Part shown: positions 32,085 through 62,429 of the stretch, piece by piece | Position numbering within the stretch: the stretch's first letter is position 1 | How the letters are laid out: the number at the start of each line of letters is the position of its first letter | Virus record (IMG/VR): IMGVR_UViG_3300018080_000158 | Location: 15,580-79,579 of that record | Direction: 5' to 3' (one strand) | DNA length: 64,000 bases | Origin: a virus | Program-made: the position numbers and the translations under genes | Notes under the pieces: model-generated | Database searches by the model: none | What the model was told of the DNA's origin: nothing | The model's input: only the letters and a program-made list of their open reading frames with translations

Positions 32085-32531
32085 TTATAGATGCTTCTGC
32101 TCTACTAATGATCTGAATAGATCCAAATCAAAAGCTTTGCCTGGGCAAGTTTTACTACCTCCAATTAAGTCTCTATGCCCTACAATATTGCTTACTGGAA
32201 TATGATAAACCTTACAAATCCAAGTTGCCAGCCGAGCCCCTGCATATAGTTGAGTTTGAGAAGGAGCGTGTGTATCAAAACATCCAACAAAGCAAATCCC
32301 AATAGAGTTGTTGTTATGTCCTAAACAATGAGCGCCTTTCACATTAGGCATTCTACCCATTAAAATCTCATAGTGATCTCTGATATACTCAATGCCAAAA
32401 TGATATCCTATATCAGACCAGCCCAAAGTCTCAGTATGGTAGCGACGTATGGCATTCCAAGAAACTGTATTGCTATCCTCAGTCAAACTATGATGGATTA
32501 CTAAGATATCAGGGACCATTTGCTTATCCAT
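32085..32531 (-). CDS. N-acetylmuramoyl-L-alanine amidase endolysin (Amidase_2, T7 lysozyme-like)
   Basis: VIHHS, GWSDIGYHF, GAHC.G.N..SIGIC, GHRD...KTCPG. Confidence 0.93.
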   Translation of the reverse strand: MDKQMVPDILVIHHSLTEDSNTVSWNAIRRYHTETLGWSDIGYHFGIEYIRDHYEILMGRMPNVKGAHCLGHNNNSIGICFVGCFDTHAPSQTQLYAGARLATWICKVYHIPVSNIVGHRDLIGGSKTCPGKAFDLDLFRSLVEQKHL

Positions 32532-33529
32532 TCGTCAATGTCGATAGAAGTCCGCTCTCTTATATGACTCCTGTGGTTTTCACAAGTATTCAACACATCG
32601 TGCAATAAAATTCTAGTTCTTCTTGGAGATCCTTTTATAGCGTTCTTGGCATAACGCTCGGCCCAGACTTTGCCTAATGTTACATATGTTGCCAGTAAAC
32701 GATTTCTGTGGTAGTCATCATAATTCCAGTTGTAGCCCCTCTTATCTCCATGGTGGCGCAAAGGCCCTCCTGGCATCAGCCATACATTCCTTCCAGTAAC
32801 AGCCATTGCCCAATTCCAAAAATTCTCCCCTCCCCCGTAGATACCAAGCTCTTTCGGCCATCCTCCAAGATCATCATATATTTGACGGGAAACAATCATC
32901 CCGCAAGTACTCATACAAGGCCTAGTAAAAGGGATTATTTTAGAAGAGTCAAAAGAACAAAATTTGTAATGAAGCACTCCCTTCTCTGGTTTAGCTACCA
33001 GCCTGTACATTAAAACTCTATGCTCTATAATGCTATACGTTAAAGGAAGATGCAAAGATCCGTTGAGTCCTTCATGATGATCGATGTAGTACTTGCAAGC
33101 ATTCGCTAATGAATTTCTAGACGGTAGGCAGTGAGCGTCGCAAAACAAAAAAACATTGCCACGAGCACACTCAGCAGCAAAATTTTTACATTGCCAATGG
33201 CTGAGTTTGCCTTTATATTTCAAAATTCTGAGCCAGGGAAGGCCTTTCATCAAAGCTTTGTCAGTAAATATTCTATGTCCTCTGTCAGGCTCACGTAATT
33301 GCTTACGTTCTACTTCGTCACACCAGTTGTCAACTGCAATTACTTCAAATGAAAAAGATCGATCCTTCAGCTCTTCATATAAAGCTTGCAGAGTAAATAC
33401 TAAGCTAGGCCATTCATTTACAAATGGAACGATTACGGATACCATATTGCTGCCGGGCTTTTTTGTTTGAATTCTAAAGGTCTTAGTAGTTATTTGCTCC
33501 TCCGTCTTTCCGCTCTCTGCCTCTGACAT
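32501..33529 (-). CDS. GT-A glycosyltransferase resembling polypeptide GalNAc-transferase (GT27-like/GT2)
   Basis: VSVIVPFVNE, AVDN, FCDAHC (DxH), LGGW...GIYGGGEN (cf. WGGEN). Confidence 0.8.
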   Translation of the reverse strand: MSEAESGKTEEQITTKTFRIQTKKPGSNMVSVIVPFVNEWPSLVFTLQALYEELKDRSFSFEVIAVDNWCDEVERKQLREPDRGHRIFTDKALMKGLPWLRILKYKGKLSHWQCKNFAAECARGNVFLFCDAHCLPSRNSLANACKYYIDHHEGLNGSLHLPLTYSIIEHRVLMYRLVAKPEKGVLHYKFCSFDSSKIIPFTRPCMSTCGMIVSRQIYDDLGGWPKELGIYGGGENFWNWAMAVTGRNVWLMPGGPLRHHGDKRGYNWNYDDYHRNRLLATYVTLGKVWAERYAKNAIKGSPRRTRILLHDVLNTCENHRSHIRERTSIDIDEWISKWSLIS

Positions 33530-33547
33530 TGCTCACTCCTTTCTAAT

Positions 33548-33952
33548 TTATCCGATGGATGCTTCGTTAATAATACACCGCTTTACACCTTTCAAATATG
33601 CTGCTTCGCTATGACTCAAAAGTTTACTATCTACATGATACGGAATATTTACTGCACTTGATACTAGCCTAGACAACAAATGATGGTATTGAGTATTGCT
33701 AACATGCGACATTACTTGCCTAGTCAAACAGCATATTTTGCTTTCGCTGGCATCTGGGATTTTCATATGTAAAAATTCATGGATCAGAGTTCTACAAATA
33801 CAACTAGAAGGGTCTACAACAATCCACCAGTTATTCGGATCAAATATACCGTCTGTTCGGCCCTTCAACCTTTGCAAGTAGATAGGAATTGAACCTGTCT
33901 TCAATTGACGATAAATCCACCATAATATTCTATCAGCCTGTTTTTTAGTCAT
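33548..33952 (-). CDS. Zincin-like HExxH protein
   Basis: TLIHEFLH...E. Confidence 0.6.
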   Translation of the reverse strand: MTKKQADRILWWIYRQLKTGSIPIYLQRLKGRTDGIFDPNNWWIVVDPSSCICRTLIHEFLHMKIPDASESKICCLTRQVMSHVSNTQYHHLLSRLVSSAVNIPYHVDSKLLSHSEAAYLKGVKRCIINEASIG

Positions 33953-33956
33953 CCCC

Positions 33957-60303: not shown

Positions 60304-60307
60304 AGAA

Positions 60308-61387
60308 CTAAATCCCATGGGACTTAGAGTAGTAATAATCGCCATACCCTTGTCCCATATCTTCATCTAAAATATGATTAGTTAAGCGCAAAGAGCCTGA
60401 GACTTTATCCAGTTCGTTAATGTCTGCCATTAATCGAATATTGCCATTGATGGAAGTTAGTATATGATTTCTAAGTCTCAATGGGCCTCCAGCAAGTTGA
60501 ACATTTGAAGTATTTCTCAATCTCAAAGTACCTCCTACTTCTATACCAAATCTTAATCTCAATTGTCCATCTATCTCCGCAATAGGCTGGTGAGTAATTG
60601 TAGTTGTTGTGGTGCTAGTCGAACTGCTAGTTGTAGTGGAAGTACTTGTAGTAGTGGTACTGGTTGAGGTTGAAGTACTGGTTGAGGTTGAAGTACTTGT
60701 AGTAGTGGTACTGGTTGAGGTTGAAGTACTGGTTGAGGTTGAAGTACTGGTTGAGGTTGAAGTTGTAACAGTGAAAGTACTAGTTGTGACAGTGAAAGTA
60801 CTAGTTGTAGTGGAAGAAGTACTTGTGGTAGTAGATGTGGTCGTGGTGGTTGTCGTAGTTCCAGTGCTCCACTCTAAATGCAGCTCTGCTTCAGACCCGA
60901 CAGAGTATCCATTGAATGGGCGATCTGTCCAAAACCCAGATCCGTTGTCTACCAGCATAGCCATCATAGCATTGCCGGAAGAAAAGCCTACCCTATTTAC
61001 TACTTCCTGAACAGCACTGACAATACTTGGGGAATTGTACCACTGACTTGCAGTCCAAGCCTCTTCCCCTGTCCAGTTGCTTTTTGCTGTAGTAAGATCT
61101 TTAGCCCAATAGTCTGCATAATCTGTAGGAGCTGAGGCATCATCGGCATCATTCAAATGAATATCACAGTTAAAATCCCCAGAATCATTTGACGAAGCTT
61201 GTAGCCTAATATAGGCACCAGTTATTGTTGCCCCTTGAGGAACGGTAACATTAGGAAAGCGCAACCAGCATGAGTATTCCGAGTTAGACTTCCCTACAAC
61301 ACAGCTACCAACAGCTACATAAGTGCTCGCCCCACGGACATACCCACCATCAGTTGTCTGCCCTGTTTCAAATGTTGCTGATGCCAT
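60308..61387 (-). CDS. Virion protein with DNRLRE-like carbohydrate-binding N-domain and mucin-like Thr/Ser linker
   Basis: LRFPNVTVPQGATITGAY; ~90-residue T/S tract; C-terminal G.LRL repeats. Confidence 0.7.
   Translation of the reverse strand: MASATFETGQTTDGGYVRGASTYVAVGSCVVGKSNSEYSCWLRFPNVTVPQGATITGAYIRLQASSNDSGDFNCDIHLNDADDASAPTDYADYWAKDLTTAKSNWTGEEAWTASQWYNSPSIVSAVQEVVNRVGFSSGNAMMAMLVDNGSGFWTDRPFNGYSVGSEAELHLEWSTGTTTTTTTTSTTTSTSSTTTSTFTVTTSTFTVTTSTSTSTSTSTSTSTSTSTTTTSTSTSTSTSTSTSTTTTSTSTTTSSSTSTTTTTITHQPIAEIDGQLRLRFGIEVGGTLRLRNTSNVQLAGGPLRLRNHILTSINGNIRLMADINELDKVSGSLRLTNHILDEDMGQGYGDYYYSKSHGI
60598..60865 (-). repeat. Low-complexity tandem repeat encoding the Thr/Ser tract
   Basis: GTACTGGTTGAGGTTGAA 18-bp unit repeated several times. 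Confidence 0.9.
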
Positions 61388-61403
61388 CTACCCAATCCAA
61401 ATC

Positions 61404-62429
61404 TTAAGTGGTAGTTGTAGTAAAAGTAAATGTGGTTGTAGTAGTGGTAGTTACAGTGCTTGCCGATTCCGCTTCCCATTCCAAAGCAACTAAATTACCT
61501 GCTAAGCTTCCGGTGGCAGCAGGAACAACTTCTTTGACCCAAACACCATACCCAGCATGTGTTGTAGTAAAAGTGATTGTATCTCCGGCTTGCCAATTGC
61601 CGCCCCAACCGTCCTTGTCCAAAAGGAAGTAATAGCTTGATCCATTTGTCGGCTGGAAGTCCGTATTAATATCTCCAGATCCTACACTCCCAGTAGAAGC
61701 GCCGGACACTGAAAAATTGGTGGCGTCTGAGAAAGTCAATGTCCAAGAATCTGTGACTGTCCCTTTGTTGTATACAGTCAAAGGATACCCGGCTTCGTCG
61801 TATGTACCAGTAGCACTTGTCTCAACCCAACTCCCAGAATCTGCCACAATGTTACCTAGATTAATTTTTGTACTGACTATAGTACCAGATCCAGAACTGA
61901 AGTTATTAGTAAATGTGCCTGTAACGTTAATAGTGGCAGTATTCCCAACAAACGCCGGTGCGCCACTAACCACCATCGACTCAACATGCACACCATCATC
62001 AACTCTAATAGTAGCCCCGTCATAGACTCCATTTGCTGCATCGTAGGTAACTTGCAAAGATCCATCCCCGGCTGTTATATTTGCAGCAAGAGTACCAGAC
62101 CCGGCCCAATTACTATATCCCTCAGCAGCAGATTGAACATCAGTATCTGTGCCTGGTTTTATCCTAAAATAGTCGCCGCCTGTAGACAAGATGGAAATCC
62201 AAAGGTGGCAATGATACAGCACCAGATCTTCAACATTTTCATTTCTAACAAACATCTTACGATAGCGAGTCACTCCTGCCACTCTCTCATCGTGCGTTAC
62301 ATTTTGAAATAGATTGTTGAGGATGTAGTCAACCACTTCAGTAGACCCTATGCCCCCACCATTACTACCAGCCACATCATTGACATTCTCTGACTGATAG
62401 AATACTACATCCGAAGAAGCTATAGTCAT
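61404..62429 (-). CDS. Tail protein with C-terminal poly-Thr
   Basis: NGG...NNLF..V...ER.AG.T.YRK.F pattern; ends TVTTTTTTTFTFTTTTT. Confidence 0.7.
   Translation of the reverse strand: MTIASSDVVFYQSENVNDVAGSNGGGIGSTEVVDYILNNLFQNVTHDERVAGVTRYRKMFVRNENVEDLVLYHCHLWISILSTGGDYFRIKPGTDTDVQSAAEGYSNWAGSGTLAANITAGDGSLQVTYDAANGVYDGATIRVDDGVHVESMVVSGAPAFVGNTATINVTGTFTNNFSSGSGTIVSTKINLGNIVADSGSWVETSATGTYDEAGYPLTVYNKGTVTDSWTLTFSDATNFSVSGASTGSVGSGDINTDFQPTNGSSYYFLLDKDGWGGNWQAGDTITFTTTHAGYGVWVKEVVPAATGSLAGNLVALEWEAESASTVTTTTTTTFTFTTTTT

Follow-up and report, generated by a model that had tools for sequence, protein, structure and literature searches.

A GT27-like glycosyltransferase of uncultured phages co-occurs with threonine/serine-rich virion proteins and may prime mucin-like O-glycans on them

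Do some phages begin mucin-type O-glycans on their own particles? The question is raised by the IMG/VR virus record IMGVR_UViG_3300018080_000158, a linear sequence of 79,579 bases that is 72% complete by CheckV. We analysed a window of 64,000 nucleotides, positions 15580–79579 of this record, and all coordinates below are those of the window unless another record is named. All window genes lie on the minus strand, and the G+C content is ~41%. One gene (32501–33529) encodes a glycosyltransferase of 342 amino acids, here called P0001, which resembles the polypeptide N-acetylgalactosamine (GalNAc) transferases of family GT27, the eukaryotic enzymes that start mucin sugar chains by transferring GalNAc to serine or threonine with retention. 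Two genes far from it encode proteins with dense threonine/serine (Thr/Ser) tracts, P0002 (60308–61387, 359 amino acids) and P0003 (61404–62429, 341 amino acids). The original prediction was that the enzyme primes O-glycans on these two tail proteins and that an adjacent glycosyltransferase cluster extends them. From our comparative analysis, we consider it probable that P0001 primes O-glycans on Thr/Ser tracts of the phage's own virion proteins and that these are later extended into a mucin-like coat.

The translation of P0001 contains the motifs that had been read from the gene, SVIVPFVNE (residues 31–39), FCDAHC (129–134) and GIYGGGEN (229–236). Its Pfam match is a weak one to Glycos_transf_2 alone (29.6 bits), and a PHROGs search leaves it unmatched. 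Animal GT27 enzymes also match Glycos_transf_2, and in them the WGGEN motif is covered by the Pfam model Glyco_transf_7C. Against all PDB sequences, the top matches of P0001 are human GalNAc-T12 (1e-6) and GalNAc-T10 (1.7e-5). The DxH motif of P0001 (D131-A-H133), which in GT27 takes the place of DxD for metal binding, is aligned on the DCH/DSH of these two enzymes, and its GGEN on their GGEN/GGEQ. When a profile of 52 homologues is compared with the PDB, seven GalNAc-transferases rank first (3e-7 to 1e-5), the Y-G-G-G-E-N of P0001 (within 229–236) is aligned with (I/V)WGGE(N/Q), and the family-invariant H259, the candidate downstream metal ligand, falls on the GH of GalNAc-T10. Besides H259, the residues D131, H133, G232–E235, R264 and Y266 are invariant across the 52 homologues.

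The predicted fold leads to the same family. The AlphaFold model of P0001 has a mean predicted local distance difference test score (pLDDT) of 92.3 and a predicted template-modelling score of 0.88, with disorder confined to residues 1–23. In a Foldseek search of the PDB, GT27 enzymes take all top 50 places. VIA, an aligner independent of Foldseek, gives Z 26.7 for mouse GalNAc-T1 (293 residues, root-mean-square deviation 3.4) and Z 25.3 for Toxoplasma GalNAc-T3, followed by WrtF (18.9), chondroitin polymerase (18.5), SpsA (17.1) and TarS/TarP (15.9–16.0). By sequence and modelled fold, P0001 resembles GT27 far more than the GT2 enzymes with lipid or polysaccharide acceptors, and it does not cluster with the latter. 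Residues 17–342 of the model superpose on positions 108–422 of the GalNAc-T1 chain, which is the entire catalytic domain and nothing more.

Compared with GT27 enzymes of known structure (mouse T1, 8v9q; human T2, 6nqt; T10, 2d7i; T12, 6pxu; Toxoplasma T3, 8uhv), P0001 shares the whole GT-A catalytic domain and has DxH, a GGEN variant and the downstream histidine at matching spacing. Its candidate acceptors also recall mucins in that Thr and Ser are densely packed in them. The differences lie in what surrounds this core. P0001 is phage-encoded, reads Y-GGGEN where the animal enzymes have WGGEN, and is not matched by Glyco_transf_7C. The P0001 chain stops with the catalytic domain, so that the C-terminal ricin-type lectin domain is absent, and its homologues are likewise 303–354 amino acids long. 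The N-terminus (residues 1–28) is polar and has no hydrophobic segment, signal peptide or membrane anchor. P0001 should therefore be soluble and cytoplasmic, away from any secretory pathway, which would place it in the same compartment as the assembling virions.

The proposed acceptors were examined on the translated genes. In P0002, 84 of the 91 residues from 176 to 266 are Thr (56) or Ser (28), interspersed with F, V, I, G and H only; the expected tract of about 90 Thr/Ser residues is thus present (60593–60862), and it may serve as both O-glycan acceptor and stalk. Its codons are mixed (ACT/ACC/ACA/AGT/TCA) with an 18-base periodicity. The mixture of codons indicates a genuine coding tract rather than a run of one codon. 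Part of the tract consists of the 18-base unit AGT ACT TCA ACC TCA ACC, repeated several times, so that tract length could change by slippage or recombination. Preceding the tract, residues 1–175 form a CBM96-like beta-sandwich that resembles modules found as phage proteins of ~190 amino acids (Atlas search, by features and structure). Following it, the C-terminal ~95 residues (60308–60592) contain five G-x-(L/I)R(L)(R/T/M)-N-like repeats, LRLRFG, LRLRNT, LRLRNH, IRLMAD and LRLTNH, which may form an anchoring or fibre-forming element. P0002 could thus present a head that binds sugars, carried on a long and probably glycosylated stalk, an arrangement that fits an adhesive appendage. In microbial glycoside hydrolases, O-glycosylated Thr/Ser/Pro linkers tether carbohydrate-binding modules. 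P0002 is similar in that a long Thr/Ser tract connects its CBM96-like module with a C-terminal part that may act as an anchor. It differs from them in lying in a phage tail region, in having no catalytic domain, and in a tract of nearly pure Thr/Ser with no Pro.

P0003 is an all-beta tail-module protein (PHROG 24675, 6128 and 9261) that ends in ...ESASTVTTTTTTTFTFTTTTT, with 16 Thr/Ser in its final 20 residues (322–341; 61407–61466). The poly-Thr C-terminus that had been noticed is therefore real, and it is a candidate acceptor. The model of P0003 (pLDDT 91.9) consists of beta domains. Solved structures match it domain by domain (Z 8–11) but not over the whole chain, the matches being tail-tip, baseplate and tail-tube insertion domains of the phages Chi, JBD30, Mystique, R4C, T5 and lambda. 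Of 120 P0003 homologues, 110 have their C-terminus at ...GESA and the other 10 carry an appended poly-Thr, poly-Ser or mixed tail; the varied make-up of these tails suggests repeated gains. The two genes stand between a tape-measure-like gene (62448–63998; PHROG tape-measure families, E 1.6e-9), which is truncated where the contig ends and with which the tail-tip genes begin, and a gene for a tail protein of 641 amino acids (58441–60366; PHROG 6079 and 1887, 'tail protein') with a CarboxypepD_reg-like C-terminal domain. Placement of P0002 and P0003 in a tail module is thus supported by gene order and, at the level of domains rather than whole chains, by fold. No further open reading frame (ORF) of the 79.6-kb record has a comparable Thr/Ser tract, and the major capsid and tail-tube genes, the usual tract carriers in relatives, fall outside the record.

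The enzyme family is essentially phage-borne, as far as genome surveys indicate. P0001 has 724 detectable homologues (~310 amino acids, ~50% identity). A scan of IMG/VR gave at least 64 loci, on contigs of 10–277 kb. In contrast, 185,579 prokaryote species, represented by one genome each, gave four matches, all of them contigs of metagenome-assembled genomes (MAGs) whose bins are three of Desulfobacterota type and one Thermoplasmatota archaeon. On two of these four contigs, proteins encoded upstream of the enzyme gene end in poly-Thr tails. The contigs L401, L402 and L403 belong to Desulfobacteraceae or 'Deltaproteobacteria' MAGs, a weak hint at the host group. The phages concerned appear to be uncultured: a tblastn search of 50,697 GenBank phages with P0001 yielded a single weak match, in a Tunturiibacter phage (E 1e-6), and no close relative. 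Searches of the literature that combined phage with GT27 or polypeptide GalNAc-transferase turned up no account of the family.

If the enzyme acts on Thr/Ser tracts, the two should be found together. At 35 of the 64 loci, an ORF with at least 16 Thr/Ser per 20-residue stretch lies within 10 kb of the enzyme gene, always on the same strand, and at eight loci a tract gene lies on that strand less than 300 bp away. Entire records were also searched with a single DNA pattern of 14 Thr/Ser codons; up to three mismatches were tolerated, and the threshold was set at 10 or more matches. Any match was found in 37 of 49 enzyme-bearing records and 10 or more matches in 35 of 49; among near-complete records, all 12 had matches. 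Arbitrary viral contigs of at least 20 kb, drawn using a meaningless 14-mer, had any match in 10 of 43 cases, mostly marginal, and 10 or more in two of 43 (Fisher p = 1.5e-11). One of these two positives reflects a run of acidic residues on the opposite strand, and the single positive among 13 near-complete arbitrary contigs is a marginal match with three mismatches. A closer control is provided by records with a P0003-family tail protein, most of which are without the enzyme (present in 1 of 50). They had any match in 15 of 49 and 10 or more in ~9 of 49 (p = 2e-7). Single-protein queries with P0003 and with the phage's family A DNA polymerase (PolA) returned no related loci, so that alignments were needed as queries. 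There is enrichment in the reverse direction too, although this converse link is weak: among the matches listed for a run of ten Thr codons, three of 29 contigs carry the enzyme, far above a background of ~1 in 30,000 to 45,000 contigs. The homologues of P0001 therefore do not occur independently of Thr/Ser-rich virion proteins but co-occur strongly with them, across phages of 38–53% G+C and with different carrier proteins. As a marker of tracts, the generic GT2 domain (PF00535) was considered and rejected; it is also found in 17 of the 41 tail-protein relatives whose P0003-family gene has no tract nearby.

The carriers in relatives are virion proteins as well. Each of five complete enzyme-bearing genomes encodes 4–6 tract proteins. 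C-terminal tails are found on the major tail protein (phrog_807) in two of these genomes and also on phrog_673 head and phrog_687 structural proteins, and fibre-sized proteins have internal Thr/Ser tracts of up to ~760 residues. One complete enzyme-bearing phage (record G020, 66087–70019; L070:6087–10019, plus strand) encodes a protein of 1310 amino acids that is almost continuously Thr/Ser from ~435 to 1196, by its sequence a mucin-sized domain in a phage protein. A search with an alignment of the major tail protein from which the tails had been trimmed found 48 loci, of which ~35 end in ...SPYF..T..TTTTTTTT. In the phrog_807-like family (L405–L443), a C-terminal run of 5–14 Thr follows the conserved ...SPYF through 41–100% identity, and the most distant members (35–40% identity) are without it. 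All ten records that are at least 70% complete and have a Thr-tailed major tail protein carry the enzyme. One of the ten was found via the tail protein alone, and another via the poly-Thr scan.

These observations suggest the following model. During late infection, P0001, a lectin-less cytoplasmic relative of GT27, would transfer the first sugar from a uridine diphosphate (UDP)-sugar onto Ser/Thr hydroxyls of pure Thr/Ser tracts. In the phage studied here, the stalk of P0002 (90 residues) and the C-terminal Thr-rich tail of P0003 would be the acceptors; the candidates in relatives include the major tail protein, head proteins and long fibres. The glycan might next be extended and capped by further phage-encoded glycosyltransferases and by sugar methyltransferases, so that the flexible tracts acquire a mucin-like coat. 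Consistent with such extension, the enzyme gene at ~36 of 58 other loci is the last of a conserved cassette that encodes a GT1/GT4-like protein (420 amino acids), a GT2-like protein (225 amino acids), a GT1 protein (374 amino acids), a Methyltransf_24/CmcI-like sugar methyltransferase, a second methyltransferase and two unknown proteins.

In the phage studied here, extension would fall to a sugar cluster inside the tail region (42736–56255; Pfam and NCBIfam matches). It had been described as adjacent, and it is not: it lies ~9 kb from the P0001 gene, whose direct neighbours are an Amidase_2 endolysin gene, a polymerase gene and small ORFs. That the cluster belongs to the same pathway as P0001 is a conjecture on our part. 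It encodes GT9-like (43635–44552) and GT1-like (46754–47689) proteins, a UDP-sulfoquinovose-synthase-like protein (47686–48876; NF041015, E 1.8e-152, 508 bits against a curated cut-off of 575), two methyltransferases (49535–50110 and 50880–51521), a weak sulfotransferase-like ORF (50107–50901), a 908-amino-acid fusion of GT2, GT7C and GT1 (51493–54219) and a GT4 (54987–56255). The position of the UDP-sulfoquinovose-synthase-like gene beside the sulfotransferase-like ORF may mean that the phage glycan contains a sugar that is sulfonated or sulfated. The GT7C region of the fusion weakly matches residues 211–273 of P0001 (E 6.7e-4), so that a GGEN-type site may be present in this enzyme too.

To our knowledge, glycosylation of phage particles has been shown so far only in a few mycobacteriophages, for which the source study is reportedly that of Freeman et al. 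2023. The glycan coat of these mycobacteriophages blunts antibody recognition. In Che8, Corndog and Myrna, according to two papers, phage enzymes glycosylate the C-termini of capsid and tail-tube subunits (PMC12363180, PMC12619734). Che8 gp108 is a GT2 joined to a PF13578 methyltransferase, gp109 is GT2-like and gp110 is GT25-like. The two systems are alike in combining glycosyltransferases with a sugar methyltransferase, PF13578 being found both in gp108 and in the cassettes of P0001 relatives, and in having C-terminal tails of virion subunits as sites, comparable to the poly-Thr tails on major tail and head proteins of P0001-bearing phages. Homology of the P0001 family to gp108–gp110 was examined and rejected (hhalign probability 0.1–0.4%), leaving the general GT-A class in common. 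In addition, the hosts of the P0001-bearing phages, uncultured and of 38–53% G+C, are not actinobacteria, and the tracts are far longer (90 to ~760 residues) and also occur inside fibre-like proteins. As judged from the sequences, the logic is that of the mycobacteriophage systems, but the priming enzyme and the hosts differ and the tracts are much longer.

Several observations weigh against priming of virion tracts by P0001. The chief weakness is that the evidence is wholly comparative and the association is partly bound to lineage: many enzyme-bearing phages share one major-tail-protein family, and the tail-less relatives of that protein are fragments, which makes the contrast one-sided and not truly independent. 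Identity between P0001 and GT27 is just 13–21%, with modest E-values (1e-6 to 3e-7), and in the profile search TarP (6h1j) comes close behind as the eighth PDB match (E 2.8e-5), with its similarity confined to the N-terminal half. The P0001 gene lies beside lysis and replication genes, 27 kb from the genes for P0002 and P0003. Pattern matches are missing from 12 of the 49 enzyme-bearing records; eight of these are less than 45% complete, and four are 59–80% complete, one of them (G039) having a major tail protein with a tail of only five Thr. Conversely, 26 of the 29 poly-Thr contigs among the matches listed have no P0001-family enzyme, so Thr/Ser tracts do not depend on this family, and P0003-family phages with tracts (G122, G125 and G128) carry other GT2 genes instead. 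Phage mucin-type O-glycosylation as originally predicted is thus supported in part: GT27 kinship and tract co-occurrence speak for it, but such tracts do not require this enzyme.

In the main alternative, what P0001 and the cassette modify is not a protein but, for example, a host envelope polysaccharide, lipopolysaccharide, a teichoic-acid-like polymer or a lipid-linked glycan; the tracts would be plain flexible linkers and the co-occurrence a result of shared ancestry, for which the single lineage of many enzyme-bearing phages would provide a basis. TarP and TarS of Staphylococcus aureus (6h1j, 5tze), which act on ribitol-phosphate polymers of Gram-positive walls, are the obvious models for such an activity. 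Like P0001, they are GT-A enzymes; TarP is also phage-borne, and its profile similarity to P0001, noted above, covers the nucleotide-binding half. However, this similarity is limited to that half, TarP and TarS lack the half that contains GGEN and the histidine, and their Z-scores with P0001 (15.9 for TarP) compare with 26.7 for GT27. About 8 Z units separate GT27 from every polymer-acting GT-A. A precedent exists in TagN, as a bacterial gene annotated as polypeptide GalNAc-transferase can act on teichoic acid (PMC11032452), and several signal-peptide- or lipoprotein-like proteins are encoded near the P0001 gene. On the other hand, no flippase, polyprenol-linked or membrane component was seen beside that gene, the MAG bins suggest Gram-negative-type hosts, in which teichoic acid is not expected, and shared ancestry fits poorly with the range of base composition and of carrier proteins over which the co-occurrence extends. 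We regard a non-protein acceptor as unlikely.

Alternatively, another enzyme of the sugar cluster, the GT4, a GT2 or the 908-amino-acid fusion with its GT7C motif, may prime the tracts while P0001 adds a later sugar. The window contains at least five other glycosyltransferase genes, the fusion also has a GGEN-type region, the P0001 gene is detached from the cluster, and the tract-bearing phages without P0001 relatives have other GT2 genes, all of which would suit this arrangement. Yet the best-matching solved fold class of P0001 acts directly on Ser/Thr of polypeptides, and it is the P0001 family that tracks the tracts; generic GT2 does not, given its presence in tract-less relatives. A later step for P0001 seems, on this evidence, quite improbable. 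Still less credible is glycosylation of modified bases in phage DNA, which has in its favour that phage glycosyltransferases often act on DNA (as cited in PMC12619734) and that the P0001 gene is near a DNA polymerase gene; the scanned window ORFs include no recognisable gene for a hydroxymethylase or for another base modification, the fold matches protein-acting GT27, and the link with Thr/Ser tracts and sugar methyltransferases would have no place in it, so we consider it very improbable.

The remaining genes of the window are those of a tailed phage. Library scans recognised a large terminase (2993–5092), a portal (26190–27944), a UvsX-like recombinase, helicases and a primase. The Amidase_2 endolysin (32085–32531; PF01510, E 4e-21) is encoded directly downstream of P0001. 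The PolA (27958–30534) has a uracil-DNA-glycosylase-superfamily domain (PF03167, E 2.7e-22) N-terminal to its exonuclease and polymerase domains. Between the P0001 gene and the sugar cluster, and within the latter, signal-peptide- or lipoprotein-like N-termini are present at 33957–34406, 35268–37205, 37967–39883, 40075–42048 and 45991–46749, for example MKKILAICLLTFLASVSIGFAAA and ...LLVISGC. One of these proteins is a G8-domain protein of 645 amino acids. Such products are unusual among the tail genes of a tailed phage.

Priming of virion Thr/Ser tracts by P0001 can also be put in a stronger and more general form, which we offer tentatively and hold to be doubtful. A phage-borne sister family of GT27 would start true mucin-like O-glycosylation in the bacterial cytoplasm, and the cassette would build methylated glycan brushes, here possibly sulfoquinovose-bearing or sulfated, on tail, head and fibre Thr/Ser stalks in many environmental phages. 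If this were true, mucin-type priming would be an invention or an acquisition of prokaryotic viruses, with a bearing on the origin of the eukaryotic pathway. The P0001 family is the closest prokaryotic-virus counterpart of the animal mucin-initiating enzymes, and it accompanies mucin-like tracts of virion proteins in uncultured phages that number in the dozens and vary in base composition. If the proposed chemistry is true, the family would be a concrete outgroup for asking how GT27 arose, a small soluble enzyme that glycosylates Thr/Ser tracts in the bacterial cytoplasm would be useful for glyco-engineering, and a glycan coat in many environmental phages could affect their adsorption, host range, stability, grazing and sticking to surfaces.

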